Shown in pieces: positions 22,895-40,500 of a stretch of DNA of 64,000 nucleotides (its first letter is position 1; every line of letters starts with the position of its first letter). The notes beneath the pieces were generated by a model. That model worked only from the letters and a program-made list of their open reading frames with translations. It searched no databases and was not told the origin of the DNA. Position numbers and translations under genes: made by a program. Origin of the DNA: Flavobacteriales bacterium (GTDB lineage: Bacteria > Bacteroidota > Bacteroidia > Flavobacteriales_C > GCA-002722245); contig CANFBW010000007.1 of the NCBI GenBank assembly GCA_947444925.1, forward strand, positions 8,774 through 72,773. Direction: 5' to 3'.

Positions 22895-22928
22895 AACAAA
22901 AAAGCCCTTGTATAAAGGCTTAACAAAT

Positions 22929-22962
22929 AAAAAAGCCCCAACCTTTCGGTTGGGGCTTTTTT
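22929..22962. terminator. Bidirectional rho-independent terminator between convergent genes.
   Basis: AAAAAA-GCCCCAACC-TTTC-GGTTGGGGC-TTTTTT. It has a perfect 9 bp GC-rich stem and a 4 nt loop, with an A-run and a T-run on the flanks. Confidence 0.8.
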
Positions 22963-22981
22963 AGAAAGGTAATTTAAAGAA

Positions 22982-25900
22982 CTATTTATTAATTACAACT
23001 TCTCTGGTTGTAACAAATTCGTCGTTTTTGATTGTTACAGTATATACTCCGTTAGCAAGATTTTCGATGTTCATTTCTTGTTTCTCGTTTGCATAAACTG
23101 TGTTTGATACAACCACTCTACCAAATATATCCATCAACTCAACAGTAGCTTTTTCAGATACTACAATGTTCAACACATTGCTTGTTGCAGGATTTGGATA
23201 AACATTGATGATTTGATTGTTTGCTTGTTCTACAACAGCCAGGCCAGCAGTAGTGAAAGCTACAGTAGTAGAATCACCATTTACAAAAGCTAAAACAGAT
23301 TGCAAATCAGATGCATTTACTTGGTGTCCAGCGTTTACAGCAAAACGCACAGTAACCACTGATTGGTTAACGTTGTATTTTTGCATGCTGTTAGAAGTAA
23401 ATCTCAAAGTTTGGTCATCAGAATTTACGTATGACATTGCTTCAGAATTTGCAGTATGATTTACAATTGAACTGAAAGTAAGGTTTTCATTGTATTGCAT
23501 AGAGAAGTCTAAAGCATTCACTGATTTAGAAGTTGAAACAGTTACAGGAACATCCAAATATCCGTCAACAACCGCCGCTTTTGAAATATCAAAAACTACT
23601 CTGTCATTGTTGTCTTGTTTGAAAGCATTGTTTGGTGTTGTAGTAGCATAACTACCGTTAACATCACCAATCATGATACCTCTGTAAGTTTCACTAGCGA
23701 TCACAGGACAGTTAGCAAAATCCAACACCGGAATAGGCAAACAGAATGGAACAACTGGAACTCTTGATTTTGAGAAACCTGTTGAATCACTTGCAGGGTA
23801 AGTAGATGAAATTTTGTAAGACAAGTCTGTCGCTACTTTTGTTGAATCAACAAACAACCAGTCTCTAGACGGTTTTCCGTTTGATACACCAGCATTTGTG
23901 TAGTTCCAAGCCTGTTTAAATTCAGGGATCCTCAATACTGTTCTATGGTTGATTTGTGAAACGTCACCAGCAGATACCAATCCATCTCCATTTACGTCCA
24001 TTGCAACAATTTGGTAAATAGAAGGAATGAAAGAAGCATCCTTCACTAACACTTTTCTAGCAAGCAAAGCATCAGCACCGTTCACAACAGGCATAACATC
24101 AGTTGTACCGATTACATCTTTTTCAATGTTCAAATCCAAACCGTTGCTCAAGCTATAAGTGAATAAGCCATTAAGGTCAGGTTGAACAGCCGTTACAGAT
24201 TTAGCGTTGCATGAAGCATTGTTTCCATAAATGTTGGTAATCAAATGCTCATTCGGGTTTGCAACATTGTAGTTGATAACACTGTTGTTAGACCAAAATT
24301 TCAAAGCACCGTGAAAAGCATCATCTTTGTAAGTAATGTATTTACCAGCTTGAACCCTTTTAGTGCTCACGCCAACAAAATAACTTTCTTCTAAGCTAGA
24401 TACAGAAACTATTGCTGTATCCACTGATTGAAAGTTAGCTGTTTTTGTAAATCCAATGCAAAACAATTCGCCTGTTCCGCTGAAAGTAGCGTTTGCTGGA
24501 GCCGTACCATTGAAGTATGCAGAAATATAGATCACACCATTTGCAGCGTCAATGTTGTTTACAACTTCAACATAGCTAGATGAAATCAAAGCATTACCTA
24601 CTGTTACCGTACCAGTTGGAGTGATTTTTGTTTTGTCATAGTTTACTGTTAAGTCATAACCAATTACATCAGCAACTGGATCAACAGCAACTACAGGCAA
24701 ACAAAAAGCAGCAGGAATACAAGTAGCAGTAGTAGTAACCACTTTGTAAGGAAGCGCATTTGGATCTGGAATTGAAAGAACTACAGCAGCAGAAGTTGTA
24801 ACTGCACTTTTGTTGTCAGTCGCTTTTGCAGTAAAACTTGCAGTACCGATAGTACTAATCCAAGTAGTAGTGAAAGGAGCAGAAGCAACAGAACCAATTG
24901 AAGTTCCATTCACAAAAAACTCAACAGAAGTAACTGAACCATCAGCATCAGCTGCAGCAGCTGTAAGCGTCACCACTGCAGGAGCTGTAAAAAATGCGCT
25001 GCTCAATGGTGAAGTAAGGCTCACTGTTGGAGGAAGATTAATGCTCACAGCAATTGATTTACCAGCAGAAGTTGTAAATGCAGCTCTGTTGTCAGTCGCT
25101 TTAGCAGTAAAAGAATGTGTGCCGGCAGTTGCTGTCCAGTTCATTGTGAATGCAGCTGGAGCAGTAACAGTGCCAATAGATGAACCATCTACAAAAAACT
25201 GCACACTAGCAACAGTACCATCAACATCGGCAGCAGTTGCAGTGATCACAACAACATCACCAACAACAGCTGTAGCTGCAGCATTAACGCTCACTGAAGG
25301 AGCTTGATTGTTTGCAACATTAATCGTTACAGAAGAAGAATTTGCAAATGCAGCTTGATCGTCGGTAGCCTTAGCCGTCAATACATGAGATCCAGCAACA
25401 GACGTGTAGTTTGCAGTGTAAGGAGCATCATCGTCAAAACCCACAGAAAAACCGTCAACAAAGAACTCAACTAAAGCCACAGTTCCATCAACGTCGGCAG
25501 CAGTTGCAGTGATGGCAACAACGTCACCAGTCACAACATTTGCACCATTCAATGGAGCAATAATGCTCACAGTAGGATTAAGATTCGGAGCCAATTTCAA
25601 ACTTGGAATAGAAATCTCAGCACCAGTTGGATTGCTCACAACATAATTTTGAGCACCTCCTGTTGGCGTACCGATTTGGATGTTCAGTTTAAAACCAAAA
25701 ACACCATCTGTAGTAAACTGACCAATCAATACTCTGTTGGTATCAGCATTGGCGCCCATAGAACCACTCAATGAAGACCATGCTCCATCAGAAGTTGAAA
25801 AAGAACCACTAAATTGGCTTTCAACATCAAATACGCCTCCTGTTGGATCAAAACCAAGAAAAGTTACCGCAGCAGGAGTTCCTGCAACACTACCGTCTTG

Positions 25901-26380
25901 AACTTTAATTTGAATACCAGTCGTAGCATCACCACCAGCAAGAACAGTAGCACCTAAAGTACTAAAGATAGATCCATCGGTGTCGTCAGATTTAAGAACC
26001 CCAACTTTTCCGCTGGCAGTTGCGCCAACAGAAAACCATGAATCCAAAGCAACTGTGTTTAATTTAGTGTTGTTAACAGTGATACCATTTGGCGTTGTAG
26101 AACCTCTGTCTTCATTGTTGAAAAAGGTAGTACTCGTTGTAATTTCCAATGGATGTGCAGCAGTACCATAAGCTACTTGAAATTTGTAGCCGGGCAACAT
26201 GTCCGCATACACGCGGTATGTAACAGATCCAATAGGAAGAGTACCAACACTAGCGGCAGTATCAGCGGCAGTAGCAATGTAGTATTTTTCAACCTTGATT
26301 TTCTCCAACCCATTTTGCGCATGGATCAATCCAAACGAGGCGAACAATACGCCCAGGGTTAATTTAAATTTTGTTTTCAT
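22982..26380 (-). CDS. Giant multidomain T9SS cargo protein. It combines the N-terminal domain of the local paralogue family, three tandem Ig-like domains, cohesin-like and dockerin-like segments, and a type-A CTD.
   Basis: 1132 aa with a signal peptide. The N-terminal ~230 aa are ~65% identical to the 34351-35424 product. There are three ~90 aa repeats (..ITATAADVDGTV..FFVDG..TAKATD..). A segment resembles a cohesin. There are Ca-loop-like motifs, AMDVNGDGLVSAGDVSQINHRTV and GDVNGSY. The C-terminus (VYPNPATSNVLNIVV..NGVYTVTIKN...) is a T9SS CTD. Confidence 0.6.
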   Translation of the reverse strand: MKTKFKLTLGVLFASFGLIHAQNGLEKIKVEKYYIATAADTAASVGTLPIGSVTYRVYADMLPGYKFQVAYGTAAHPLEITTSTTFFNNEDRGSTTPNGITVNNTKLNTVALDSWFSVGATASGKVGVLKSDDTDGSIFSTLGATVLAGGDATTGIQIKVQDGSVAGTPAAVTFLGFDPTGGVFDVESQFSGSFSTSDGAWSSLSGSMGANADTNRVLIGQFTTDGVFGFKLNIQIGTPTGGAQNYVVSNPTGAEISIPSLKLAPNLNPTVSIIAPLNGANVVTGDVVAITATAADVDGTVALVEFFVDGFSVGFDDDAPYTANYTSVAGSHVLTAKATDDQAAFANSSSVTINVANNQAPSVSVNAAATAVVGDVVVITATAADVDGTVASVQFFVDGSSIGTVTAPAAFTMNWTATAGTHSFTAKATDNRAAFTTSAGKSIAVSINLPPTVSLTSPLSSAFFTAPAVVTLTAAAADADGSVTSVEFFVNGTSIGSVASAPFTTTWISTIGTASFTAKATDNKSAVTTSAAVVLSIPDPNALPYKVVTTTATCIPAAFCLPVVAVDPVADVIGYDLTVNYDKTKITPTGTVTVGNALISSSYVEVVNNIDAANGVIYISAYFNGTAPANATFSGTGELFCIGFTKTANFQSVDTAIVSVSSLEESYFVGVSTKRVQAGKYITYKDDAFHGALKFWSNNSVINYNVANPNEHLITNIYGNNASCNAKSVTAVQPDLNGLFTYSLSNGLDLNIEKDVIGTTDVMPVVNGADALLARKVLVKDASFIPSIYQIVAMDVNGDGLVSAGDVSQINHRTVLRIPEFKQAWNYTNAGVSNGKPSRDWLFVDSTKVATDLSYKISSTYPASDSTGFSKSRVPVVPFCLPIPVLDFANCPVIASETYRGIMIGDVNGSYATTTPNNAFKQDNNDRVVFDISKAAVVDGYLDVPVTVSTSKSVNALDFSMQYNENLTFSSIVNHTANSEAMSYVNSDDQTLRFTSNSMQKYNVNQSVVTVRFAVNAGHQVNASDLQSVLAFVNGDSTTVAFTTAGLAVVEQANNQIINVYPNPATSNVLNIVVSEKATVELMDIFGRVVVSNTVYANEKQEMNIENLANGVYTVTIKNDEFVTTREVVINK
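24778..25597 (-). repeat. Three coding tandem repeats of ~270-285 bp (Ig-like domains) inside the 22982-26380 gene.
   Basis: The protein-level triplication is visible, and the DNA is periodic. These are coding repeats. They are not CRISPR. Confidence 0.5.
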
Positions 26381-26413
26381 TTTTTAGTTATTAGTATTAT
26401 TTAGGATTGGCAA

Positions 26414-28240
26414 TTAATTATTTGATTGACCAAATTTTGCAACCAAAAGCAAGAAGTCAGATGTGTTAGTGATACCATCTTTGTTGATGTCAGTTGGATT
26501 TGCATTCGTCAAACTTTTTAATGCTACTGTACCATACTCAGACAACCAGCTAGAGTTCGCTTCACTTGCGCTAAAAGCACCTTTATAGTTTACTACAGTG
26601 AAAAATCCATCAGCAGGAGCTGAACTTGCAGAAACCAATTCAGTGGAAGGAATTGCGTGCACTTCCGTAGTCATTGCTGAGTTTGTACCGTTGAAAGCCA
26701 ATGCTACAGTGATACCTGGAACAGATGTAACGATTTGGTTGCGGTCAGTTGTTAAAAATTGAAGCGAGTCAGCTACGCTTGGCGCTGTAGGAATCTCGTT
26801 AAAAAGCAAACCTGTACCAGCCGCATCTTTCTGGAAAGTACCAGAAGTAGCAGTTGTTGTTTTAACCAAATTTCCTTTAGTAAAACCAAAGTGTTTTCCG
26901 TCATTCGCTCTGATGATAACGTTGTCTTTGATGATCAAAGATTGTGGCACTGGGAAAGTTCCGCCAGCAGTTGTCCATGATGCAGCATAAGCAGGTGTAC
27001 CGTTGGTCCATTGGTCATAAGCATCACCTTTTTGAACTGCGTTAGAACGCGCTTGAGACAAGTGAACACCTGAACGGAAGTTAGCAAAAACAGAGTTGCG
27101 GAAAGATCCAGCTGTCATTTCTTTAGCCATCAAACCTGCGTGTCCACAGTTGTCGTAAACGGCATTCACCTTACCGTTAGAAATGAAAGTTGCATTCCAT
27201 ATTTGTGGGTTAGATTGAAAAGGGAAAGTTGATTTATTAACCCCAAACTGATCGTCAGAATCACCTTCAATACCATTGTCAGAAGAACGCAAATCACCAG
27301 AATTCAAAGAGTCAGCAGAAACAGAAAATAAGAATTGTGCTTTACCTCTGTAACCCAAGTCATAGTCAAATTTGTCATCGTCACCGAAAAATTGTGAAAT
27401 GTATTTAACGTTTACTGTACCACCAAAGTATTCCACTTCATCATCACCAGCAGCAATGATCTCAATGTGGTCAATTTTAGTACCTGAACCCACTGAGTAA
27501 AGTGAAAGACCATTCATTTCATTTCCAGCAGATGCACCACCTAGCAAAGCGCCAGTATGTCTCAGAGAAACGTAAGAAAGTACACCTGAGTTATCAGCGT
27601 TGTTTACAGTTGGGAAAGCAGCATCACCAGCGCCGAAACGTGTGTGCGTGCTCACTGCAAAACCTTCTGCGCAACCTACACCATCAACACCTGTTGTAGC
27701 ACTCAATTTACCAGCAGCACTGTTCGCTAATAGCGTTAAATTGTTCGCAGCAGTACCGGCAATAGCAAGTCCACCCCATTTAGAAACGTTGGTCAAACTA
27801 TAAGTTCCATCCATTGGATCAAGATTACTTGTAAAAACAATATTACAATCTTTAGTTCCTGCAGCATTGATTTTAGCACCTCTTTCAATAAAGATAGAAC
27901 CAGTAGCAAGTGGATCTGCATTGTAAACACCTTGTATTACAGCACCCGGATCAATTGTAAGGGTGTAAGGACTTGGCATGTAAAACTGGCCATTCAATTG
28001 CCACAAAGTATCACATCCGAGGTGAACATTGCCGTTGAACACGTTTAAAGTTGCACTACCAACTACTGAACTAGTAACACCTTTAATTGAAATGTTTGCC
28101 TGTGGTCTTGCATTCACTGCAGGGCAGCCACATTTAGCGCCCACCGTGTTTTGATTGGCTTGAGCAAAGCCCGTTGCCATAGCGCCAACTGCTAGTAGGG
28201 CAGTTGTTGCAATTTTTGTAAAATTTTTCATTGTTTTCAT
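26414..28240 (-). CDS. Secreted protein of unknown function ending in a single dockerin-like Ca-binding segment.
   Basis: 608 aa with a signal peptide MKTMKNFTKIATTALLAVGAMATGFAQA. It is Gly/Asn/Ser-rich and beta-rich. The C-terminus DINKDGITNTSDFLLLVAKFGQ resembles a dockerin/EF-hand repeat. There is no T9SS CTD. Confidence 0.45.
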   Translation of the reverse strand: MKTMKNFTKIATTALLAVGAMATGFAQANQNTVGAKCGCPAVNARPQANISIKGVTSSVVGSATLNVFNGNVHLGCDTLWQLNGQFYMPSPYTLTIDPGAVIQGVYNADPLATGSIFIERGAKINAAGTKDCNIVFTSNLDPMDGTYSLTNVSKWGGLAIAGTAANNLTLLANSAAGKLSATTGVDGVGCAEGFAVSTHTRFGAGDAAFPTVNNADNSGVLSYVSLRHTGALLGGASAGNEMNGLSLYSVGSGTKIDHIEIIAAGDDEVEYFGGTVNVKYISQFFGDDDKFDYDLGYRGKAQFLFSVSADSLNSGDLRSSDNGIEGDSDDQFGVNKSTFPFQSNPQIWNATFISNGKVNAVYDNCGHAGLMAKEMTAGSFRNSVFANFRSGVHLSQARSNAVQKGDAYDQWTNGTPAYAASWTTAGGTFPVPQSLIIKDNVIIRANDGKHFGFTKGNLVKTTTATSGTFQKDAAGTGLLFNEIPTAPSVADSLQFLTTDRNQIVTSVPGITVALAFNGTNSAMTTEVHAIPSTELVSASSAPADGFFTVVNYKGAFSASEANSSWLSEYGTVALKSLTNANPTDINKDGITNTSDFLLLVAKFGQSNN

Positions 28241-28948
28241 TTTTTAGTTTTTTAGCTTTTAATTAAGTTCCATAACGAATTACTGAACGAGACAAATTTC
28301 AGCCAACAACCTCACTCCTTGATTAAAGTTGAATTATCAAATGTATAATTCGGAGATAGTTTTATGTTAAGAATGCATCTGCCAGCAACATGCAAACTTC
28401 ACAATACATCGGACATTTGGGCAGAATGTTAAATGTTCAATTGCAGCAGAGAGAAAAAAATCAACTTCAACATTTAAAACAAAAACACTTGCCTTCCTCA
28501 CCAAACAAGGAGACACGAAAAATATAACAAAGCAATTTCACAAAAGTAAAAAGCAACACCGTAAAGTTAAATGTGATCAACGGTATTGTTCAAAGCACCA
28601 AAAAACCATATTGCTTAACAATGAGTTAATCTGACAACTGCTCCTCCACCACTGCAGGGCCTCAATAATGCTGAGCACTGCAAGCCAAAAATCATTTTTC
28701 TTTCAAAAAAAAATGGCACTCACAAACAATTCAATACTGAATTTATCAATTCATAAAAAAACGCAGTCACCACGAACTAATTCCCGACGATAGCACATCA
28801 AAAATTTGCGCATTGTACTTTGCATTGCATGAATCTGCAATAGGGATTCACCAATAAATTACCTAAAAAGAAGGTGAAATGAAATTAAAGGCGAACGAGC
28901 TTAATTTGTAAAACAAATCAAACGCAGCGCTATAGCACTTGCGCCTAT

Positions 28949-29743
28949 TTAATCTTTGACGCAACGCACGCTGAATCCATAGCGTTTTTCCACATAAAAT
29001 CTAAATACCTTAGATTTTCTATAATCCAAATTACGATACCAGAGTTCACTATTGTTCAATGTTGACGACCAAAAATACGCAGTAAACTGAGCGCCGGGAC
29101 TACCTGGATTACCATTAAAAATTCTACATCCGCCGGGAAGCGCTGTGAATCCACTTTCATTGTTTGGCCAAACTGTAAATAGGTCGTCTGAATTGTACCA
29201 ATCATAGCCTCCATTTCCTGCCACCAATTTCGGCTTCTTCATTTTATCAGCTTCGCTGGTACCTCTCCAAGTAATGCTATCGGCCGATAATTTTGCCATT
29301 CCCAAATTCATTTCCAAGGTTTTCCATTCCTCATCACTGGCAATGTGCCAGCCTTCGGGCGCAATGTTGCGTGAATCAACAACCGCATATCCATTGTACA
29401 ACAATCCATATGTAATTGAACTGTTGATGCAACATGCCGCTGTCGTATTTTGCCAATCAACAGCTGAAGGCACAAAATGAATAGAATCACCATTGCGATA
29501 AGTTTTGACCAGCAAATTTTCAGCCATCCACCATTGATTCCCAATTTTTACAGTTTTGTAAACGTTGCCATCGCGATCGCGCATCGTACTTGTTTCATTG
29601 ACAGGCTTTGGAGCAGGAATCGCTTTTTCACAAGCAGAGAATTGCAACATAAAAATCATGAACACCGTCCAAAAAGACAACGCCAAAATCAACTTACTTT
29701 TGTTCACAAATGAATACCTTAAAATAAATTTCTGCATGATCAC
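28949..29743 (-). CDS. Lipoprotein with the Fibrobacter succinogenes major paralogous (FISUMP) domain.
   Basis: The lipobox is FSAC. The hallmark motifs DGNVYKTVKIGNQWWMAENL...GLLYN...EGWHIASDEEW...GFTALPGG.R...FWSST...GFSVRCVKD are all present. Confidence 0.8.
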   Translation of the reverse strand: MIMQKFILRYSFVNKSKLILALSFWTVFMIFMLQFSACEKAIPAPKPVNETSTMRDRDGNVYKTVKIGNQWWMAENLLVKTYRNGDSIHFVPSAVDWQNTTAACCINSSITYGLLYNGYAVVDSRNIAPEGWHIASDEEWKTLEMNLGMAKLSADSITWRGTSEADKMKKPKLVAGNGGYDWYNSDDLFTVWPNNESGFTALPGGCRIFNGNPGSPGAQFTAYFWSSTLNNSELWYRNLDYRKSKVFRFYVEKRYGFSVRCVKD

Positions 29744-29756
29744 TTTACTTTTATAC

Positions 29757-31103
29757 TTAATGCTTTACGAATTTTTTTGTGCTGTACAATTTACCTGCGC
29801 TGATGCGTAAAAAATACAAACCAGCAGTTAAATCTGACACATCGATTGTTTCTGATTTGTCAATTAAACTGCCACCGCTGTTGCTTTCTAACAACAATTG
29901 ACCAAAACTATTGTACAGCGAATATTTGAGTGGTGCTACCGCAGTTGCTTTTACTTTAACCAACAATTCTTCTTCCACCGGATTTGGAAAAAGCTCAAAA
30001 AGAACACTTTCATTTAATTCACTGATCTCTAATTTTGGACAAACTTCCACTATGTCTCTGTTGCTGCACAAACCAGGATAGCAGCACAAACTAGGCACGT
30101 GAACTTTTACCTTGGAATCATAATTACACGCCAGCGAATCGCCGCAACCCACCACCAAATATGTTTTGCAGGCGCTATTGTCTTTGCAACCAAATGAAGC
30201 AGCGTACTCGGCATAATTTGGATCAGTGCAACCACAAGGAATAGGATAATTTAAAAATGGCCGTTGGTGCACATAGTCTGCCGTTGAATCGGCGCCATTC
30301 TTTGCCACGTATCGATGGATCGTTGTGCCGTTTTTATCCAAAATTTCAACGTTCAATGCAAAGGCAATTTTTCCTTTAGTGGTCAGTTGCGCCACCAACA
30401 CCAAATTGCTATCGCGGTTGACACCCATCACTCCATTGCTTTGCAAATACGCATTCTTGCTAACGAAGCTGTTTTTTTTAACCAATGATCCAAAAATGGT
30501 AGAATCATTTCCATCTAAATCCACAATTCCACCTTCAAAAGAAGAAACCGGAAGAAGCGACATCGTATCCAGTCCATCTGCTGTGGTCAAGGGAATTCCA
30601 GCCGCAGCCGCACTGTTCTTTAATAAGCCACCATCAATGGGCACGCTGCCGCCATCGTTGTTAACGCCACCAACAACAGAGCCATTTCTGTCGAGAGACT
30701 TTGGCGTTCCAAAATAGGTTTTGCCACTTGGTTTTGAAAGCGATGTTTGACCAAGCGTGAGCCAGGTGTCGAGCGCCAAAGTGCTTTCACCAAAACGCGC
30801 GACATTAAAAAATCGAGCATGGCTTTGTCCTTCTAAAGTATGGTTGTAAAAGGTAGAATCTCCTGAGAACATCAACTCGTGTTCAGCGTCGCCAAAAAGT
30901 TTCAAAAGTTTGCATCCCGGCTCCATATCAATATACACCCGATAGGTTGTTGAATTCACTGGAAGCACTGATCCTGTTGTGTCGGTGGCATCGTTAGCGT
31001 CAGACACATAATACGTTTCTATCCTCACATTTTCAAGTTGCGCAGGCAACACAAAAACAGAAAGAAGCAATAAAAAAAGTAAGGTATTTTTTTTGGTTTT
31101 CAT
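29757..31103 (-). CDS. T9SS cargo protein. It is a member of the local N-terminal-domain paralogue family and has a Cys-rich middle region.
   Basis: There is a signal peptide. The N-terminal domain is ENVRIETYYVSDANDATDTTGSVLPVNSTTYRVYIDM...LDTWLTLG...VLVAQLTTKGKIAFALN. The middle contains 14 Cys (CGCTDPNYAEYAASFGCKDNSACKTYLVVGCGDSLACNYD..). The C-terminal CTD is LFPNPVEEELLV...AGLYFLRISAG. Confidence 0.55.
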   Translation of the reverse strand: MKTKKNTLLFLLLLSVFVLPAQLENVRIETYYVSDANDATDTTGSVLPVNSTTYRVYIDMEPGCKLLKLFGDAEHELMFSGDSTFYNHTLEGQSHARFFNVARFGESTLALDTWLTLGQTSLSKPSGKTYFGTPKSLDRNGSVVGGVNNDGGSVPIDGGLLKNSAAAAGIPLTTADGLDTMSLLPVSSFEGGIVDLDGNDSTIFGSLVKKNSFVSKNAYLQSNGVMGVNRDSNLVLVAQLTTKGKIAFALNVEILDKNGTTIHRYVAKNGADSTADYVHQRPFLNYPIPCGCTDPNYAEYAASFGCKDNSACKTYLVVGCGDSLACNYDSKVKVHVPSLCCYPGLCSNRDIVEVCPKLEISELNESVLFELFPNPVEEELLVKVKATAVAPLKYSLYNSFGQLLLESNSGGSLIDKSETIDVSDLTAGLYFLRISAGKLYSTKKFVKH

Positions 31104-31191
31104 GCACGTTTGTTTTTTTCTTCTCAGCAGATCAACTCTCTACCTACTTCTTTCTTCCTTATTTTTGAATCGATGTTGATTGTATTAACAG

Positions 31192-34100
31192 CTATAATTT
31201 ATACGACAAACTCAAAATGAAATTCGTTCCGAATTGATATCTATCGTAGTTCCAAATATAATTGCCTTGGTACTGATAAGCCCTTATTCTCGCTGCATTA
31301 AGTATGTCGGTAACCCGAAAACTAGCACTGAAAGACTTGCCGATTTTTTTTGAAATTTTCAAATCCAAAAGATTTCTTGGCAATTCGTACACCGAAGGAA
31401 TTTGACTCGTAACATCTCCTGCAATCACCAGTTTTGGCCCCTGCACATTGTAACTCAATGTAACTTGTAATCCAATGGAATCAGAAGTGTAAGTCAAGAT
31501 GCTGTTCACTAAATAAGGTGCCTGACCAAACAAAGTACGTGTTTGTGCCGCACCAAAAGTACCATCGGCTCTTTTTTCAGAAAAGGTGGAACGCGAATCA
31601 ACAAAAGTAACATTGGCTCTGAATTCAAAATATTTGGTCAATTTTTTCTTGCCCTCCAATTCAATACCGCGCAACCAAGCTAGATTGGGATTGTTTTCCC
31701 AGGTAAATCCTGTAGCGTTGTACAACTCAATGTAGTTCATGAAATCTTTGTAAAACAAACTTAGCGATACGTTGTCACCAGATTTGAAATACGATTCTAA
31801 ACGCAAATCATAATTGTTGATGTTCACCATTTTTAAATTAGGATTTCCCCTTACTCTATCGTTCAATTCATAGTCGTAAACGTCGCTGGTCGATAGCTCA
31901 CGCAAGCCGGGACGCGCAACAGTTTGACTAAAATTAAAGCGCAAATTAATGGGCGACTGCGCATCTTTTCTCAACTTGTATATAGCAGAGATACTTGGCA
32001 AAAAGCTCACTTGATTGAGTTTTCCTGGATTGGAAGCTCTACGGGGATCATTCACTGGTAAATTCAAAGAATCAGCCAACTTACTGTCTGTGTAGAGATA
32101 CGCTTTTTCCACGCGCAGTCCGCCCGACAAACGCAATCGGGGTACAATACTGTAATCGGCCATGGCGTATGCGGCGCTCACATTACTAAAACCCATCACG
32201 TGATTGTCTTGATTGTCACTAAACAAATACCCTCTTAAAGCACGGTAGGTATTTGCCTCGGGAACAGGAATGAAACCAAAAAAATCCAATCCCAAAGGAT
32301 CACTTCCAGCATTGCTTGAATTAACAACATAGTTGCCCATATTGCCGCTGTTGATGTTGGTTAAACCTATTTGATCATAGGCCCTGTCGATGCGCTGAAA
32401 AGCAGCGCCAAATTTTATTTTTCGCACAGCATCGGCCACTCCATTGCCTTTCAATGGAAGTTCAACAGCCAATCGCGAATCAAAAACATTCTCTGTCAAA
32501 TATCTGAAGTAGCGGGCTGAATTGTTGATTTGCGAATTTTGCAATGCTGGATTTGGCGAGATTTCTGCTCTTTTGAAATCCGGTACAATACTTTTTCCAT
32601 CGGTGTAAGACGCATTTCCTTCTATTTTAATTTTATGCCACGGAATGTAATGCTCTAATTTTGCCTGATAAATAAATTGCTTTCGTGACTCATACAATTG
32701 TCTTTGCACATCGGCAAACGCATCGCCCGCCCTTGAAGCCACACCAACGTTGTTGGTGCCATTCACATTGGGCATAAAAATTAAATTGATGCTGTGATTT
32801 TTGTGGTATTTGTACATCACATTCACCAAAGCGCTCCACTCATTGGTTTCTCTAGTTATCTTTTGTGGAAAACTGATCGTATCAATATAAACTCCATTGG
32901 TAGGACCGCCAGTAACTCGGCCATAAGTGCTATTAGGGTCGTATTGCGTTGCACTCGAATACCTAAAGCCAGCAAGCAAACCAAGTGGTCTTCCAAAAAA
33001 ATTCAGCTGGTTACCAAAGGTGATACTTTGTGTGGTATTTAAGGGCGCTTGCCTATTTGTAGTTCTCCAATTATTGGGCAAACTTTGATTGAATTGCACT
33101 GCGCCAGCATTCATTATTTTGTAAGCATCACCTTGGTAAGTGCCCTGGTTGTATTTTTCCAAAGCAGCATTATAAGCATTGGGATCATTGAAATTGCTTG
33201 CGCCAAGTAAACCCATTTTTTGAAACACCAACTTGTCGTAAGTCTGCGACGATGCTCCGCTAGAACTATAAATAGAAGAGGTACTAACACCTACCGATTT
33301 TAAAAAATCGCCATAACCCAAGGCAACAAATTCTTGATATCTATTCGGCTGATTGTTCAACAATTGATAGTCCTTCATGCTGTGGTCTCTAAAACCATTG
33401 TCATAGCCCAACCAATCCGTTGCGCTGTGCTGCGAACTCACCACCTCTTTAAATGTGGTTTGCGCATTGTAACCAATGGCACTTTCAACAGTGATGGCCA
33501 ATTTTTTTGGATACTCTTTTGTTTCCACCGAAATATAAGCTCCCGCCCAATCACCAGGTAAATCGGGACTCGCAGTTTTCGCAATCACCACATTGTCGAT
33601 CAACGCGGCAGGAAACATATCCAATCTAATGTTGTTCGTAAATGGATCTAAAGTTGGAATTCGAGAACCATTGAATGTTGTTTTTACATAGCGGTCACCA
33701 ATACCCCGCACCGTAATTAAACCACCGCTGGATGAAACACCAGAAACCCTCGTCACGGCAGCAGTTAAATTTGCATCTCCCGTTTTTTTCAATGTCTCAG
33801 AAGAAATGTAGTCGAGTGTAACAGCAGACTTCTGCTTCACCTCCTCCATGTAGGTATCCTTTGCTTTTGCTTTTTTTCCGCCAATTACAATTTTATTGAT
33901 AGTGGTTACCGCCAAAGGCAGTACAAAATCCTTCACAAGCACCGCTCCACTTTTTACTTGAAAACTATCCGTCATCGTTTGATAACCTTTCAAGGAAACA
34001 GAAATTTCTTGCCCCAATGAATCCGAAATATTAATTAAATAATTTCCCTTTAAGTCGGTGGTAATATCCGTCAATCCATTTGCATTCAGCATAAAGTTTA

Positions 34101-34215
34101 CACCCAACAAGGGCATTCCGTTTTCATCGCTTATCTTTCCTTTTATCGTTCCTTGCGCGAACAAAAATGACCCTGCTAGTAAACTAAAGACTACTACAAA
34201 AAAACATTTTTTCAT
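31192..34215 (-). CDS. TonB-dependent outer-membrane receptor with an N-terminal carboxypeptidase-regulatory-like domain.
   Basis: ~1007 aa. The signal peptide is MKKCFFVVVFSLLAGSFLFAQG. The CarbopepD_reg-like segment is TIKGKISDENGMPLLGVNFML. A plug region and a long beta-barrel follow. No SusD-like partner is adjacent. Confidence 0.7.
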   Translation of the reverse strand: MKKCFFVVVFSLLAGSFLFAQGTIKGKISDENGMPLLGVNFMLNANGLTDITTDLKGNYLINISDSLGQEISVSLKGYQTMTDSFQVKSGAVLVKDFVLPLAVTTINKIVIGGKKAKAKDTYMEEVKQKSAVTLDYISSETLKKTGDANLTAAVTRVSGVSSSGGLITVRGIGDRYVKTTFNGSRIPTLDPFTNNIRLDMFPAALIDNVVIAKTASPDLPGDWAGAYISVETKEYPKKLAITVESAIGYNAQTTFKEVVSSQHSATDWLGYDNGFRDHSMKDYQLLNNQPNRYQEFVALGYGDFLKSVGVSTSSIYSSSGASSQTYDKLVFQKMGLLGASNFNDPNAYNAALEKYNQGTYQGDAYKIMNAGAVQFNQSLPNNWRTTNRQAPLNTTQSITFGNQLNFFGRPLGLLAGFRYSSATQYDPNSTYGRVTGGPTNGVYIDTISFPQKITRETNEWSALVNVMYKYHKNHSINLIFMPNVNGTNNVGVASRAGDAFADVQRQLYESRKQFIYQAKLEHYIPWHKIKIEGNASYTDGKSIVPDFKRAEISPNPALQNSQINNSARYFRYLTENVFDSRLAVELPLKGNGVADAVRKIKFGAAFQRIDRAYDQIGLTNINSGNMGNYVVNSSNAGSDPLGLDFFGFIPVPEANTYRALRGYLFSDNQDNHVMGFSNVSAAYAMADYSIVPRLRLSGGLRVEKAYLYTDSKLADSLNLPVNDPRRASNPGKLNQVSFLPSISAIYKLRKDAQSPINLRFNFSQTVARPGLRELSTSDVYDYELNDRVRGNPNLKMVNINNYDLRLESYFKSGDNVSLSLFYKDFMNYIELYNATGFTWENNPNLAWLRGIELEGKKKLTKYFEFRANVTFVDSRSTFSEKRADGTFGAAQTRTLFGQAPYLVNSILTYTSDSIGLQVTLSYNVQGPKLVIAGDVTSQIPSVYELPRNLLDLKISKKIGKSFSASFRVTDILNAARIRAYQYQGNYIWNYDRYQFGTNFILSLSYKL

Positions 34216-34350
34216 TGTGGTGATTTTTCCTTCAAAAGCATCAACAAAGGGCATTGCAAAAATCGCGTACAGTTTTTAATTGCTCTCGACAAACAATTTC
34301 TGCGATTTTATACAAAGCTCCACCTCGCTCACATTTTCTGGTTTTTTGAA

Positions 34351-35424
34351 TTATTGGATTTTAATTATTTTCTGAGTGCTCGTTAAATCACCGCTCGTCA
34401 TTTGCAATAAATATTGTCCGCTTGAAAGTGCTGAAATATCAATTTGCGCATTGTAGTGATCGCTAACATTGTTCATTGTATTTTGATACACCTTTCTTCC
34501 GTCAATCGTGTAAATAGCACAATTGAAATCCATGCTTTTATTTGTGTTCAAAATGTCAATGGTCAACACATCATTCGCTGGATTTGGAAAAACACGGAAT
34601 GAACTTGTTTTGTCCAATTCAGCAACAGCGCTAATTACATCAGAAGAATAGTTTAGATTCGACAACACTGTGCCATCTCCTGCAGGAGCTTTCGCGTAAA
34701 ATTTATGTGCACTTAAGTCGGGAGCACCCAATTGAAAATTCAACTCGAAAGAAAAAATACCATCTGTGGTAAACTGTCCAATCAACACTTTGTTACTGTC
34801 GGCATTTGCACCTTGTGCACCGCTCAATGCCGACCATGCGCCATCGGCCAAAACAAAAGAACCACCAAATTGACTTGCCGCGTCAAACAAATCTCCCAGC
34901 GGATCAAAACCAACAACTGTAACTGCTTGAGGACTTCCGGCAACCATACCATCTGCTGTTTTTAGTGAAGCGCCATAAGTCAAATTCGTGCTGCCCAAAA
35001 TAGTACTCGTGCTAAAAATAGAACCGTCTGTATCATCACTTTTAGGAACGGCCATTTTTCCGGTGGCACTTGCGCCAACTGACAACCAGCTGTCCAACAT
35101 CACCGTATTTTTTTTCACGTTAACAACGCTGATTCCATTAGGAGTTGCAGCGCCTCTGTCTTCATTGTTAAAGAAGGTAGTGGTCGTAGCGATCTTTAGC
35201 TGATGACCAGTTTCGGCAAAGGCCGCTTGAAAGTTATAGCCCTTTTGCATGTCGATAAAAATGCGGTACGTCACCGAACCAATGGGCAAAGTGCCCACAC
35301 TTGCAGCTGCATCGGCTGCATCAGACACGTAATATTTTTCAACGATCATTCGTTCGAAACCATTTTGGGCTTTCGCCACTCCAGCTAGGAAAAAAAGTCC
35401 TAGTGCTATAAATATTTTTTGCAT
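34351..35424 (-). CDS. T9SS cargo protein consisting of the paralogue-family N-terminal domain plus a type-A CTD.
   Basis: 357 aa. The N-terminal domain is VEKYYVSDAADAAASVGTLPIGSVTYRIFIDM...TTTTFFNNEDRG..TPNGI...LDSWLSVG...KSDDTDGSIFST...VLIGQFTTDGIFSFELN. The CTD is VFPNPANDVLTIDIL...GQYLLQMTSG. Confidence 0.55.
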   Translation of the reverse strand: MQKIFIALGLFFLAGVAKAQNGFERMIVEKYYVSDAADAAASVGTLPIGSVTYRIFIDMQKGYNFQAAFAETGHQLKIATTTTFFNNEDRGAATPNGISVVNVKKNTVMLDSWLSVGASATGKMAVPKSDDTDGSIFSTSTILGSTNLTYGASLKTADGMVAGSPQAVTVVGFDPLGDLFDAASQFGGSFVLADGAWSALSGAQGANADSNKVLIGQFTTDGIFSFELNFQLGAPDLSAHKFYAKAPAGDGTVLSNLNYSSDVISAVAELDKTSSFRVFPNPANDVLTIDILNTNKSMDFNCAIYTIDGRKVYQNTMNNVSDHYNAQIDISALSSGQYLLQMTSGDLTSTQKIIKIQ

Positions 35425-35461
35425 AAAAATTGGATTTTATAAATTGTTAGTAGTTAATATC

Positions 35462-36265
35462 TCATTTATTATCACTTAAGCGCAAAGCGTCAAATTTCAC
35501 TTCTTCGCCTTCTGCATCGGCACATACAAAACGAACAGCGCCACCTGATGGAGTGCCCACTTGAATATTTAAATCAAAAGATAATTTTCCGTTTGTGGTC
35601 AGCTGCGCGATCAAAACTTTATTGCTGGCCGTTGGTCCTTTTGATCCACTTAAAACACCAGTAAAAGCGGCCCACGCTGCATTGTTTGAGCTGAGCATTA
35701 CTGCGTTGCTATCGTTGTTGAAGAAACCCACATCCAAATTAAAAGGTTTAATCATCGGAAGATTTCCATTCATAAAACCATCACTTTTGTTCAAGCTACG
35801 GCGTTTCAATACGGAACCATCAGGATCTTCCGATTTCAAAACACCAGCGTAATTGCTGGCTGCAGAGCTAATGGTGATCCATGAATCCAAGGCATAAGCC
35901 TTTTCGTTTACTTTCAAATAACTGACGTTGTAGCCTATCAAAGCACCACAGTTAACATTGTTGTAAAAAGCGGTGGTCGTTTTTATTTTTAATGGATGTT
36001 TTTCATCGCCATAAACCACTTGCAAAGAATAGTTGGGTTTCAAATCAACGTAAATCCTATACGTCACACTTCCCTTTGGCAGCGCAGCGCCGAGGGTGTC
36101 AGCAAAATCTGCAGAATCTGCTACATAATATTTTTCTACGATGATTCCCTCCAATGCACTTTTATCATCGTGTGTCAATTTGACCTCACTTTGCGCCATG
36201 GCATATTGTGAAATCAAAAGTCCAAAAACCAGTGCTGGAAATAAATAAAATCGTTTCATCTTCAT
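35462..36265 (-). CDS. Secreted protein made of the paralogue-family N-terminal domain only, with no CTD.
   Basis: The signal peptide is MKMKRFYLFPALVFGLLISQYAMAQS. The domain is IIVEKYYVADSADFADTLGAALPKGSVTYRIYVDL...KTTTAFYNN...LDSWITIS...KSEDPDGSV...VLIAQLTTNGKLSFDLN. Confidence 0.5.
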   Translation of the reverse strand: MKMKRFYLFPALVFGLLISQYAMAQSEVKLTHDDKSALEGIIVEKYYVADSADFADTLGAALPKGSVTYRIYVDLKPNYSLQVVYGDEKHPLKIKTTTAFYNNVNCGALIGYNVSYLKVNEKAYALDSWITISSAASNYAGVLKSEDPDGSVLKRRSLNKSDGFMNGNLPMIKPFNLDVGFFNNDSNAVMLSSNNAAWAAFTGVLSGSKGPTASNKVLIAQLTTNGKLSFDLNIQVGTPSGGAVRFVCADAEGEEVKFDALRLSDNK

Positions 36266-36470
36266 CGCTCTATTAATTGAAGCGAAGATCCACAACTAAG
36301 GTGTAGCTTAGTTTTAGCAAGCATTATGATTTGGTTAGGCTTGTGTTAATTCAGAACGCAGATTGCGTTAAAATAATTTACATTAATTTATTGTTGTTGC
36401 GCGCATCAAAAAAAATTGACCGCAAAAATTGCCTCACAAAAGCAATGTGAAAAGCACAAAAGACATTTGC

Positions 36471-37499
36471 TTAAAATGAGCTGAAAGGTGACGCGTCCAG
36501 TATGAGTCCCTTTTTTTCAGACACCCGGTATTTGTAAATCAACGATATTTGGTTGGCAGAAGCCGACGACCAATATCTTCCCATTTCAGAGCCAGCATAA
36601 ACATCGTAACTGTATCCAAATGTTAAGTTTTTGTATTCTAGGCCGAGTAAAAAAGCCATTGTACCATTGAGTCGAAACCAAGTCGCCAAAGTAAGTTTTG
36701 AGTTTTCTTTGAAACGGTAATCCAAATATAGGCCAGGCGTTACTTCCTGCATGCCGCCTTGCAAATTAATCCGCACATTGGGTGCCACATCAATTTTATG
36801 GTCGCCAATAATTTTAATTCCAGCTTGAATTGAAAATCTTTTCGTTAAATCGTCTTTGCTTGAAATCACCGAAACATTTGGCGTGTTCAAATGATATCCT
36901 GCCACACCCACAAAACAATTTATTTTTCCATCGGTCTCCGTTTTAACAGGATTGTAATACCACATGGCGCCAAAGCCAAAATCCTGATGCAATCGTGTAG
37001 TATTTAGTAAATTTTCAGTGATTGCATTCGTCGAAGAATAACTTCCATTGATGTACTGCTCATCAAAAGACAAGTCGCCAATAGTCAGTGACCTTTGTCC
37101 AAACTCCCCCAACAGGGCAACGCTCAAATGTGCAGCTACCGACAATTGCAAATCATAACCCACAGAAAGTGACACGTTGAAATTGCGAAAAGCCCCCGCC
37201 ACATCGTTTTGCAAATTCAATCCAAGGTCAAATTTGCGATGGTTGTCGTTCACATACAAAGGATAAAGAATACCCAACGACGACGAAGTATATCCTTTTT
37301 GAATATCCGCCAATTGGTTTTTGTAATTGGCAATGACTTGCAAATCGCCATTGGCGCCCAAAATCGCAGGGTTCAATAAAATCGGATTCGCATACGCCTG
37401 CGTTAAACTTGCGTCTTGCGCAAATGCACCACTACAAACAAAACACAGTAATACCAATTGAAACAAGACTATTCTAAATATTTTGTTGTTCGTTTTCAT
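36471..37499 (-). CDS. T9SS membrane protein of the PorP/SprF family.
   Basis: 342 aa with a signal peptide. The mature N-terminus QDASLTQAYANPILLNPAILGANG matches the PorP/SprF signature (QDPQFSQY..NP..NPA.AG). It lies immediately downstream of a type-B CTD gene, the canonical pairing. Confidence 0.75.
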   Translation of the reverse strand: MKTNNKIFRIVLFQLVLLCFVCSGAFAQDASLTQAYANPILLNPAILGANGDLQVIANYKNQLADIQKGYTSSSLGILYPLYVNDNHRKFDLGLNLQNDVAGAFRNFNVSLSVGYDLQLSVAAHLSVALLGEFGQRSLTIGDLSFDEQYINGSYSSTNAITENLLNTTRLHQDFGFGAMWYYNPVKTETDGKINCFVGVAGYHLNTPNVSVISSKDDLTKRFSIQAGIKIIGDHKIDVAPNVRINLQGGMQEVTPGLYLDYRFKENSKLTLATWFRLNGTMAFLLGLEYKNLTFGYSYDVYAGSEMGRYWSSASANQISLIYKYRVSEKKGLILDASPFSSF

Positions 37500-37502
37500 G
37501 GC

Positions 37503-40500
37503 TTAGCGAATTAAGTTGACAAGACCCTTGTCGTTGATGATACTGCCGTCCATTTTACTTCCTCGTACAAAAAAAACATAGGCTCCTTGCGGCATCTCTT
37601 CTCCTGAATTTTGTTTTTTTCCGTCCCAGCCCGTTTGAATATTTTTCGACAAAAAGATGGCTTCTCCCATATTGTTGAAAATCGCAAATTCAAAATCTTG
37701 AATCTCCTCGCCACGCACAAAGAGCACATCGTTTTTTCCATTGCCATTTGGCGTAAATGCCGCGGGAAGCCAATAATCGTGGGTCTTCACCACCACTGTT
37801 TTTGCACCTGAAGCACTGCAACCAAAAATTGTGGTGGCAACTACAGTGTAGGTTGTTGTCGCATCGGGACTCGCGAAAGGATTGGAAATACCGGCATTAC
37901 TCAATCCGGCAGAAGGACTCCAAACATACTGCACACCACCACCTGCCTGCAATTGCAATTTTTCTCCTTTCGCTATCGTGTCGTTTTTTATTTCAAAAAC
38001 CGATGGCAAAGTATGTACCAACACCTGTACTTTTTTAGACAGCGGCGCACAACCATAACCCGAAACCGTCAACGTATATTCTGTTGTTGAATCAGGACTG
38101 GCAGCGGGATTTGCAGCCGTTGAATCGCTCAATCCTGCTGAGGGCATCCATCGGTACGCTTGTCCAGCTATCGACGGTGCTCCAATTTGAATTTCATCTT
38201 TTCGACACAGCGCAACATCAGCTCCTGCATTCGCCTGAAGTTCTGAAACCACGGCTTCCATTTGCGCGCTTGCCGAACATCCGCTGAGAAAATTTTTAGC
38301 AGCAAGCGTTATTGTTTTTGTACCGCCACTGGCGTAAACAATGGCACTCGGATTTTTCACATTTGAAATCAAAGGCTTTGCATCGGCACCAAAATTCCAT
38401 TTAAAACTTACTCCAGTAGAATCACCACTATTAGTGAAAGCCAAAGCAGCACCTGCACATTTGGGACCCAGTGTAGTACTCGCCAAATCTATGCGTGGCG
38501 TAGCTTTGATCAGCAATGAATCCGATATAGAAGTCACACAACCAAAATTATTTTTCACATCCAACAACACTGTTTTCGTGCCCGAAGTTTTGTAAATCAC
38601 TGAGGTGGGCGTTTGCGCATTAGATGTTTCTGCCGTGGCATCAGCGCCAAAATCCCAAAAATAAGTTTGGCCCACTATCTTTGTCCCACTAAAAGAAAAA
38701 GTTACGGGCACATTCGCACATACCGAGCCCGACGATGTGAAAGCCGCCACCGGCGAAGGATTTACAGTAATGGTTTGCGACTTGCTATCGTTCACCGAAC
38801 AGCTCGGTACAAAAACTTTGTGCGTGATGGTATAGGCGCCCGCATTTGCATAAATAAAATCGGCAGGATTTTCATCTGTTGAAACACTGGGAGTACTGCC
38901 CAATCCAAAAGTCCATTGGTGCGTAACACCCGTACCTTTGCTGCCAGCACTGTAAACATTGATTCCGTTTCCTGCGCAACCTGGTCCCGACAAAGTAAAA
39001 GTGGCATCGGCACCCGCAACTACGTTTACTGTTTGCAACACCGTGTCAGTCCACAAGCCATAACAAGAAGGTCCGTCAGAGACAATGAGGCGCACTGATT
39101 TAAGTCCGGCAGAAGCATAAGTCACCGCAATCGAACCCGCCGCACTACTTGTTTGTGGCGTTGCCGTAGCGCCAAAATTCCATGCAAAACTTTTATTTCC
39201 CCCTGCTCCCGCCAAACTGTTGAAAGTGACAGTACCCGACGGAAAACAAACTGCGGTGCCATTCAGCGGATTAAAATTTGCGTTCACCAAACCCACTACC
39301 AACAGGCCATAAATGTTCACAGGTACTGCACTTGAAATGAAAGAATTGTCGCCCAGTTGTCCAATCAAATTATTTCCGCTGCCGCAATAAACACCATTGA
39401 CATTGTCATCGAGTATGGCTGCACAAAAATCTTTCCCTGCTGAAACAGCAAGTGCATTTTGCAAAAACCCAACGTTTTGTATGCCGTGCATTTGTAATGC
39501 ACTCAGTCGATTGCTTCCTGTTGTATTGTCGCCCAACTGACCTTTGGCATTGGCACCCCAAGTCCAAATACTACTGTCGCTCAACACCACAGCGCTGAAA
39601 CCAAATCCGGCAGCAACACTTTTTGCTGCGCCAAGGCCCTGCACAGTCATTGCTTTCGCTTTGCTGATGGCACTGCCATCACCCAACTGACCACTGGCAT
39701 TTCCTCCCCAAGTTTTTACAGTGCCAGTGGCAAGCACTGCTATAGAATGATCGGCACCGCCATCGATGCTTATGACTTTATTTAAAAAAGTATTGCTCGC
39801 ATTGTCTAACACCAAGTGAGGTAGGGAGTCCTTTCCGCCAAAAACACCGCTCCCTGTTTGTCCGTTGGTCGCATTGCCAAATGCACACAGCGTGCTGTCT
39901 CGAAGCAACACCAAGCTATGTGTAGCGCCAGCAGCCGCTTCAAAGGCCTTACCCAAAAATCCCACGTTGCCAATGCCATGTACTTGAACAGCAGTGAGCG
40001 TTTCGCTTGTAGAATTATTTCCCAATTGTCCATTGCTATTTCCTCCCCAAGTCCAAACACTGCCGTTTTCCATCACTGCAATAGAATGTACATCTCCAGC
40101 AGCGATTGAAAAAGCAGAAAGCCCCGATGGAAGTCCTTGCACCAAAACCGGAAACAAACTTTGCGTGCGCGTACCATTGCCCAATTGACCATTGCTGTTG
40201 CTTCCCCATGCTACAATTCGGCCATCGCAAAGAATGGCTAAGGAATGGTTCGCCCCTGCAGCAATGGCTGTAGCATTTGTTAAGAATCCACTGTTCAGTA
40301 CACCTTTCACCTGAACAGGCACATTACTTTGTGTTGTTGAATTGTTGCCCAATTGTCCGTTGCTGTTGCCTCCCCAAGCCCATACTTCTCCATTGGTTTT
40401 AAGGGCCAAAGTATGTGCGTCACCACACGTCAAATGATGGGCAATACAATTCGCAGGACGCGCATTGTGCACTGCCGCCGTTAGGCTTGAGTCACGAACG

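Follow-up and report, generated by a model that had tools for sequence, protein, structure and literature searches.

A conserved Bacteroidota cassette in which four proteins sharing a previously unnamed domain accompany a TonB-dependent transporter, with a candidate Pho box ahead of its first gene

Nutrient uptake across the outer membrane of Bacteroidota is understood mainly through SusCD systems, in which lipoproteins serve as accessories of the transporter. Phosphate-depleted Flavobacterium johnsoniae, in addition, induces gene clusters that encode a transporter with pf07715 and pf13715 domains, pectin-lyase-fold lipoproteins and proteins with a signal for the secretion system of type IX (T9SS) (PMC8115612). 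PUSIII (Fjoh_3853-3859) comprises such a pf07715 + pf13715 transporter, an S41 peptidase, a very abundant pectin-lyase-fold lipoprotein named FI and a pair of proteins with a "T9SS-secretion domain" (Lidbury et al. 2020, PMC8115612), and PUSIV (Fjoh_0541-0549) lies within a phoBR operon and contains a transporter and the lipoprotein FII (PMC8115612). BT4056, a 40%-identical relative of FII, is the predicted lid of a transporter (bioRxiv 10.1101/2023.03.17.533168). Here we describe a cassette from a Flavobacteriales bacterium that resembles these systems in outline. It lies on the minus strand of a 64,000-nucleotide stretch of contig CANFBW010000007.1 (assembly GCA_947444925.1), referred to below as the window. 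Its operon-like unit codes for a single TonB-dependent transporter and for four proteins that share a novel domain, here called the N domain; three of the four are T9SS cargo and the other has a Sec signal only. The family defined by this domain occurs almost only within this one conserved Bacteroidota cassette.

Read in the direction of transcription, the unit begins with P1 (35462-36265, 267 amino acids), which consists of a Sec signal peptide and the bare N domain (~35465-36190) and has neither a lipobox nor a T9SS C-terminal domain (CTD). It is followed by P2 (34351-35424, 357 amino acids), with an N domain (34639-35367) and a type-A T9SS CTD, and by the transporter (31192-34215, 1007 amino acids), which carries a Plug domain and, as an N-terminal extension, CarbopepD_reg_2. 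P3 (29757-31103, 448 amino acids) combines an N domain (30279-31040) with a Cys-rich module and a type-A CTD. Then come a FISUMP (Fib_succ_major) lipoprotein (28949-29743), a β-helix protein (26414-28240, 605-608 amino acids) with a Sec signal peptide and a PF28492 Beta_helix_4 domain among its precomputed hits, and finally P4 (22982-26380, 1132 amino acids), in which an N domain (25595-26317) precedes three Ig domains of the Big_7 type, modules resembling cohesin and dockerin, and a type-A CTD. All four paralogous open reading frames listed in a preliminary description of this DNA are thus present on the minus strand. Its statement that three of them end in a type-A CTD and one is bare also holds, as PF18962 and TIGR04183 are both passed by P2, P3 and P4 and neither is found on P1. 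For P1, the mechanical reading frame reaches back to a TTG at 36295; gene callers start instead at the ATG at 36265 (MKMKRF...), from which a normal signal peptide results. The transporter start at 34215 agrees with an exact database protein.

The same arrangement recurs in other genomes. A scan with one genome per species gave 75 loci, every one of them in a metagenome-assembled genome of an uncultured member of the Bacteroidota; the labels include Bacteroidia, Flavobacteriales, Chitinophagaceae, Lentimicrobiaceae, Sphingobacteriales and similar, and among their sources are lakes, rivers, groundwater, peat and sludge. Synteny was counted over 76 non-redundant loci, numbered here with the prefix L, and recurrence was counted by all-against-all clustering of their open reading frames. 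The N domain is present in 76/76 loci, the transporter in 67/76 (most of the others are short or at a contig end), the FISUMP protein in 50/76 and the β-helix protein in 48/76. A search of these reading frames with the window's proteins showed that nearly all loci carry, on one strand, P1, P2, transporter, P3, FISUMP, β-helix and P4, with typical sizes of ~270, ~362, ~1020, ~445, ~250, ~570 and ~1130 amino acids, respectively. The preliminary description had made its uptake hypothesis depend on homologues of the domain neighbouring TonB-dependent receptors in other genomes, and the transporter count bears this out very strongly. The β-helix protein, absent from that account, is a fixed member of the cassette.

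Gene order is nearly invariant. P1 is the first cassette gene, with a positional orthologue in 50 loci, and P2 always stands immediately 5′ of the transporter. P3 lies between transporter and FISUMP in 50/50 cases and hence directly downstream of the transporter, in the "susD position" that the preliminary description had assigned to one paralogue. In 46 of 49 cases the next gene after the β-helix gene is P4. Two sub-modules can be distinguished, [P1 P2 transporter P3 FISUMP] and [β-helix P4], which are usually adjacent and are permuted or separate in L002, L011, L063 and L079. For 203 of 214 N domains the nearest neighbour belongs to the same positional class and not to the same genome; by this measure the four paralogues are ancient, non-redundant positional orthologue groups. 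Beyond the seven cassette families, no inner-membrane transporter, phosphatase or TonB/ExbBD gene recurs across the 76 loci. Sulfotransferase and flippase neighbours were considered as partners and are treated as incidental because they occur in only 7-8 of the 76 loci.

With a Plug domain (PF07715, E = 2.5e-10), a CarbopepD_reg_2 domain and a large C-terminal barrel, the transporter is recognizable as TonB dependent. Its best curated model is TIGR01782 (TonB-Xanth-Caul), to which it aligns over positions 18-867 of 868 (E = 2.2e-52) with 178 bits, under the cut-off of 310. The NCBIfam scan gave no match to the SusC/RagA model TIGR04056 at E <= 0.01, and similarity to solved SusC/RagA chains is limited to the N-terminal extension. 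Judged from these matches, the transporter is outside the SusC family. A Pfam search of the nine proteins of the block detected no SusD anywhere, in agreement with the preliminary description; since the transporter is not of the SusC family, the missing SusD is expected and not odd. With no TIGR04056 match and no SusD-family lipoprotein next to the transporter, the locus does not qualify as a SusC/SusD-type polysaccharide utilization locus.

Compared with such loci and with the utilisomes, the cassette has in common a TonB-dependent transporter with the Bacteroidota CarboxypepD_reg N-terminal extension. As in SusC/SusD loci, an accessory surface-protein gene lies directly 3′ of the transporter and several surface binders are encoded per operon; unlike these, it has a non-SusC transporter, no SusD and no carbohydrate-active enzymes (CAZymes), and its accessories are T9SS cargo and not lipoproteins. 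With BtuG-BtuB, XusB-XusA, HmuY-HmuR and BT4056-BT4055 (Price et al. 2023 preprint) it shares a small accessory surface protein of unrelated fold beside a non-SusC transporter. Those accessories, however, are lipoproteins present as a single copy per transporter, whereas the cassette has four paralogues, three of them T9SS anchored, and in a fold search the N domain resembled none of them. PUSIII and PUSIV, compared by composition, likewise have a Plug + CarbopepD_reg_2 transporter without a SusD partner, a β-helix-fold accessory and T9SS-signal proteins, together with phoBR adjacency or Pho control, and phosphorus scavenging is proposed for them as for the cassette. In contrast to FI and FII, which are lipoproteins encoded beside the transporter, the cassette β-helix protein has no lipobox and is paired with P4; the FISUMP protein and the four-fold paralogous domain are not reported in F. 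johnsoniae; and Pho control is read from DNA motifs here, whereas the F. johnsoniae clusters are induced by phosphate depletion. We do not count the cassette among these F. johnsoniae clusters; its likeness to them is one of outline. By this comparison it is similar in outline to the PUS, SusCD, BtuBG and XusAB systems and would differ from all of them by its four-fold unnamed domain, T9SS display, FISUMP protein and β-helix protein without a lipobox.

A MAFFT alignment of the four N-terminal regions showed that the shared domain comprises ~240 amino acids after the signal peptide. N-terminal-region identities to P4 are 57%, 41% and 34%; for the N domain alone, identities to P2 are 59% for P4, 37% for P1 and 32% for P3, the most divergent of the four. 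Of the range of ~65% to ~30% given previously, the lower end stands and the upper end was slightly high. Among 1.84 billion cluster representatives, a profile of the domain matches 618 at E <= 1e-30 and 1496 at E <= 1e-3; the former number places the similarity far beyond chance, and the family comprises ~1,500 clusters at 50% identity. Searching 5.8 billion proteins yielded 1129 relatives, most of which have ~360 amino acids and comprise the domain and a CTD; their labels are without exception "hypothetical" or "T9SS type A sorting domain-containing". Neither Pfam nor NCBIfam gave a consistent model for the domain or for 61 family members, even at E <= 5-10; hits precomputed with a newer Pfam release held nothing on the N domain, sequence-profile searches of the PDB with it gave no match, and full-text literature searching returned no paper describing the cassette or the domain. 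The view that this is no named family was therefore right as far as Pfam, NCBIfam and PDB sequences go, and on these searches the domain is previously unnamed.

Structure prediction with AlphaFold2 (61 sequences) gave confident models, with a predicted local distance difference test (pLDDT) score of 89 for whole P2 and, for the domain alone, a pLDDT of 90 and a predicted template modelling (pTM) score of 0.90. The domain was modelled alone because the CTD had dominated the matches when the whole 357-residue P2 model was used as the fold query. In the predicted fold, strands from the N-terminal part (residues 4-61) and the C-terminal part (170-224) form a β-sandwich core that is interrupted by an insertion of ~105 residues, which is rich in loops but modelled with confidence. 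Foldseek comparison with solved-structure libraries found no close relative among these structures (best E = 0.034). The lipocalin, hemophore (HmuY), SusE/F and carbohydrate-binding-module folds suggested in the preliminary description were not matched by the domain model among these solved structures; the weak matches include the adhesin tip domains of Als9, UafA, GspB and SpaP. The four paralogue classes have an identical residue in 26 alignment columns, and 20 of these lie in the sandwich core. Polar residues invariant across the paralogues are E10, D19, S31, T33, Y34, R35, H55, N67, D92, K109, D112, D139, N192 and Q198. In longer family members, the modules fused to the N domain are limited to the CTD, Ca-binding repeats of the TSP3 and EF-hand types and Ig-like domains (Big_7, Ig_7, PKD, Big_2), and there are no enzymes among them. 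This restriction to stalk modules, Ca-binding repeats and CTD gives the proteins the layout of a distal tip on a surface-anchored stalk.

An indication of when the cassette may be expressed came from the DNA upstream of P1. When this region was aligned from 43 loci, a direct repeat became apparent, TTAAY-N6-NTAAY, which has a period of 11 bp and the consensus TTAACAnnnnnCTAAC and is usually located 65-115 nt before the P1 ATG. It is present in 27 of the 43 regions, compared with 1.3 +/- 1.1 in Markov-simulated sequences. In the window the repeat reads TTAACACAAGCCTAAC (36334-36349, minus strand; 69-84 nt 5′ of the P1 ATG), again with an 11-bp period; it is the single exact match to the strict form TTAAC-N6-YTAAC in the 64 kb, and weaker in-phase repeats run on from it toward the promoter. 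Related loci amounting to 1.1 Mb contain 55 matches to the motif, 24 of which are just upstream of cassette genes. As the motif came from P1 promoters, its independent occurrence at the promoters of Pho genes is an important control. The same tandem repeat is found 5′ of pstS in L063 (966), 5′ of a calcineurin-like plcP-type gene (L078:6097), 5′ of ppx in L066 and L072 (L072:1424) and 5′ of a PhoB-like regulator gene in L005 (repeat at ~8264-8290, gene at 8327-9019) and in L032. Four copies each precede a PhoR-like kinase gene in L068 (~750-790) and, in L069 (1736-1780), the phosphate-selective porin gene that heads an oprP-pst-phoU run situated directly upstream of the cassette.

The repeat is of the PhoB-type form and nearly that of the Pho box of cyanobacteria, CTTAACCT, in which a linker of 3 bp follows a unit of 8 bp (PMC1906773). 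Tandem 8 bp + 3 bp repeats thus precede P1 as well as pst, oprP and phoBR-like genes in this lineage, and the tandem (C/T)TTAA(C/T) with its 11-bp period is a candidate Pho box for these Bacteroidota, whose consensus could be used to predict Pho regulons in these lineages. Phosphate genes flank 16 of the 76 loci by strict criteria and ~21 by cluster membership, namely, phoB/R-like genes, pstSCA-phoU, oprP, ppk/ppx and plcP-like genes with a glycosyltransferase gene. PhoB-/PhoR-like genes adjoin the cassette in 5-12 related loci and are absent beside it in the window; the regulators adjoining P1 score best against PhoB, Bacteroides-type PhoB, PhoR and PnpS models. Since the same repeats precede P1 and the pstS, oprP and phoBR-like genes, the cassette most likely belongs to the Pho regulon, as read from motif and neighbourhood. 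This link to phosphate starvation is new; the preliminary description had observed the domain and the receptor, and its interpretation is well supported as regards the novelty of the former and the linkage of the two. A LytTR regulator and hybrid kinase encoded at 15863-19739 were rejected as regulators of the cassette, the conserved repeat being of PhoB/OmpR type and the related loci carrying PhoB-/PhoR-like genes.

A pair of genes for a calcineurin-like (plcP-like) phosphoesterase and a glycosyltransferase (pf04101/GT1_3) lies beside the cassette at L030:23-1867, L031:5298-7142, L046:16920-18832 and L027:19039-20740, and in L078 the plcP-like gene has no glycosyltransferase partner. The pair resembles the phosphate-starvation lipid-remodelling genes Fjoh_4577 and Fjoh_0541 of F. 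johnsoniae.

The explanation that we favour, and to which we give about an even chance, is that the cassette is a Pho-regulated, T9SS-dependent, phosphorus-scavenging outer-membrane uptake system that uses the unnamed domain. In such a system, phosphate starvation would switch the cassette on to scavenge a phosphorus-containing or phosphate-associated compound; the apparent response to phosphate starvation makes it probable that the cargo is a phosphorus compound or is phosphate bound. P2, P3 and P4 would be exported by the T9SS and displayed on the cell surface, where the N domain, at the distal tip, would capture the substrate or dock on the outer face of the transporter, whereupon TonB would drive import. 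The FISUMP lipoprotein, with its lectin-like fold, and the β-helix protein might act as accessory binders, as a lid or as a processing enzyme, and P1, which lacks both CTD and lipobox, could speculatively be the same binding module in periplasmic form, taking over the cargo once this has been transported. Capture of a ligand by the N domain to feed the transporter is plausible from the domain layout, and a role in receptor docking or as a lid fits the data equally well.

Several observations weigh against this explanation. The N domain carries no recognizable phosphate-binding signature, its conserved residues being mostly acidic or polar, and the cassette includes no phosphatase, phosphodiesterase or inner-membrane transporter that would point to the cargo. 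The closest curated model of the transporter, though below threshold, describes a subfamily of carbohydrate importers. Neither P1 nor the β-helix protein has a known means of crossing the outer membrane. As to Pho control, the motif was derived post hoc from P1 promoters in AT-rich DNA, the regulators adjoining P1 fall below the PhoB and PhoR equivalog cut-offs, and there are no pst or phoBR genes near the cassette in the window; only about a quarter of the loci have them.

If the explanation is nevertheless correct, the cassette would be a case in which type IX secretion provides a TonB-dependent transporter with its accessories, by means of an unnamed domain family. Under Pho control it would also be a testable component for models of organic or particulate phosphorus turnover. 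Phosphorus often limits growth in lakes, rivers, groundwater and soil, and if the Pho box is read correctly, its scavenging by this conserved cassette would be apparently common among the uncultured Bacteroidota living there. The broadest form of the proposal, which we put forward only tentatively, is that the domain defines a new class of capture or lid proteins, displayed through the T9SS for a non-SusC transporter, and that these form, together with a probably periplasmic copy lacking the CTD, a lectin-like lipoprotein and a dockerin-tailed β-helix protein, a dedicated Pho-regulated phosphorus-scavenging machine that is widespread in uncultured freshwater, groundwater and soil Bacteroidota. 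In this form it would amount to a second general way, besides SusD-type lipoproteins, of feeding outer-membrane transporters and to a way of acquiring phosphorus in such habitats that had not been recognized before.

Other explanations account for parts of the same evidence. The N domain could be a structural docking or lid module that joins the paralogues to the transporter, or to each other, in a heteromeric "utilisome"-like complex in which the FISUMP protein, the β-helix protein or the C-terminal modules bind the substrate. The four positional orthologue groups are kept together as subunits of one complex would be, P3 is constantly in the susD position, 20 of the 26 residues conserved in all paralogues are in the sandwich core, and for non-SusC transporters, lids other than SusD, with several unrelated folds, have been predicted. 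On the other hand, P1, with its Sec signal only, is hard to place on the surface, and the domain of P4 lies beyond three Ig domains and further modules, far from the membrane anchor, which is better suited to capture; overall, we consider this explanation rather unlikely. A purely carbon-directed function, that is, a non-SusCD glycan utilization locus with the N domain as a new carbohydrate-binding module, the β-helix protein as a polysaccharide lyase or hydrolase and phosphate control incidental or absent, would suit the TonB-Xanth-Caul match of the transporter, the lectin-like fold of the FISUMP protein and the right-handed β-helix typical of pectate lyases and polygalacturonases. No CAZyme family was detected in any cassette member, however, no conserved sugar transporter or regulator is nearby, and both the Pho-box repeats and the phosphate genes in the neighbourhood recur and are specific, making such a function unlikely.

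The architecture of P4 and of many other family members, with an N-terminal tip, Big_7/PKD/Ig repeats and a surface-anchoring signal, is that of fibrillar adhesins, and the N-domain proteins might accordingly bind particles, minerals or algal or cyanobacterial cells and be merely coexpressed with the transporter, with the RCC1/PKD protein and PorP described below belonging to the same adhesive apparatus. The weak fold matches to the Als9, UafA, GspB and SpaP tips agree with this, as does a module shared by the RCC1 protein and P4. Unlike fibrillar adhesins, though, the cassette is in strict operon linkage with a transporter and its P1 and P2 proteins are short and stalkless; coexpression alone hardly explains an invariant interleaving with one transporter across distant lineages, and we judge an adhesive role to be improbable. 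An enzymatic N domain, for example, a Ca-dependent phosphoesterase that frees phosphate or a small product for the transporter, would explain why many polar residues are invariant across all paralogues, and secreted phosphatases are usual in Pho regulons, and the cassette has no other hydrolase. Yet the β-sandwich is unlike any known hydrolase in the fold search, and it would be unusual for an enzyme to be encoded by a single operon in four paralogous forms, of which one is probably periplasmic; we regard this as very improbable. Least probable of all, to the point of being hardly credible, is that the transporter works outward, like Oar of Myxococcus, and exports P1 and the β-helix protein, which have signal peptides but neither CTD nor lipobox. 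An Oar-type transporter is needed for PopC secretion (PMC6434023), but this is one precedent from a different phylum, no specific similarity to Oar was established for the cassette transporter, and import is the rule for this class of proteins and fits Pho control.

The remaining cassette members have some features of their own. The FISUMP protein exceeds the cut-offs of both PF09603 (E = 3.7e-43) and TIGR02145 (E = 2.2e-31), and its translation contains the lipobox FSAC, confirming the preliminary assignment as a FISUMP lipoprotein. FISUMP domains are grouped with the folds of C-type-lectin-like variable proteins, and little functional information on them is available (PMC5758913). The β-helix protein has an invariant CGCP just after the signal peptide, acid-rich repeats and neither CTD nor lipobox. 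Its C-terminal conserved loop, NPTDINxDGxTDxNDFLIxxGKFGQ, is dockerin-like and Ca-binding in type (26414-26500), and a profile of this tail matches dockerin 2y3n_B (E = 4.7e-4). The body of the protein has no sequence relative in the PDB, the tail alone being matched, and the idea that it is an enzyme thus found no support. The C-terminal half of P4 contains weak dockerin and cohesin hints (E ~0.03; segments 23900-24100 and 23270-23600). All Pfam matches to these modules are below threshold, with 16-18 bits versus 22.9 for Dockerin_1 (PF00404) and 14 versus 24.1 for Cohesin (PF00963). As the β-helix and P4 genes are almost always adjacent and have dockerin-like and cohesin-like segments, a cohesin-dockerin-type attachment is conceivable, and it may be, speculatively, that the β-helix tail attaches to cohesin-like modules of P4 or of the RCC1 protein. 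The Cys-rich segment of P3 (residues ~278-328; 30120-30270), CGCTDPNYAEYAASFGC...CNYDSKV...CCYPGLC, is kept in all P3 orthologues and matches nothing in Pfam; it may represent a mini-module that is rich in disulfides or binds metal.

The cassette is part of a longer run of minus-strand genes of single, uninterrupted orientation (22982-40937). Adjoining P1 are the genes for a PorP/SprF protein (36471-37499) and its partner, an RCC1/PKD protein with a type-B CTD (37503-40937), both on the minus strand; domain scans agree with the earlier placement of this pair and of the FISUMP lipoprotein in one single-strand block. The N-terminal module of the RCC1/PKD protein (40580-40920) is homologous to residues 926-1038 of P4 (23267-23605; ~115 amino acids, 33% identity, E = 3e-19), which ties the PorP/type-B pair to the cassette; the same two genes are again neighbours of the cassette in L005, L020, L027 and L039. 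The block is bracketed on one side by a tRNA gene (41162-41232), directly upstream of the RCC1/PKD gene, and the strong terminator 3′ of it (41129-41160), both on the minus strand, which mark the upstream edge of the block. On the other side is a strong intrinsic-terminator-like hairpin (22928-22963, minus strand; 16 pairs and a T run), 19 nt past the P4 stop codon, which marks the end of the cassette unit. Rfam searches of the block and of seven related loci gave no riboswitch, only a tRNA, along with terminator look-alikes.

A gap of 708 bp (28241-28948) separates the FISUMP and β-helix genes and contains no open reading frame of >50 amino acids and no Rfam match. Related locus L001 has a similar gap, of ~500 bp. 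In three related loci (L028, counted twice, and L044) the repeat motif is also found 5′ of the β-helix gene, which points to an internal promoter.

Upstream of the block, on the plus strand, the window contains a TMEM260-like/PMT-family gene (41442-44822) resembling those for protein O-mannosyltransferases. Such a gene, sometimes with TPR repeats, also adjoins the cassette in about eight related loci (L005, L002-L004, L011, L017, L025, L036 and L067), and its product might glycosylate surface proteins. Further T9SS cargo is encoded on the plus strand of the window, namely, a 1720-residue C25 (gingipain-family) peptidase with CARDB (6081-11243), a 382-residue protein with a weak CTD (14596-15744) and an SBBP β-propeller protein with a CTD (47748-49463); the host evidently depends heavily on type IX secretion.

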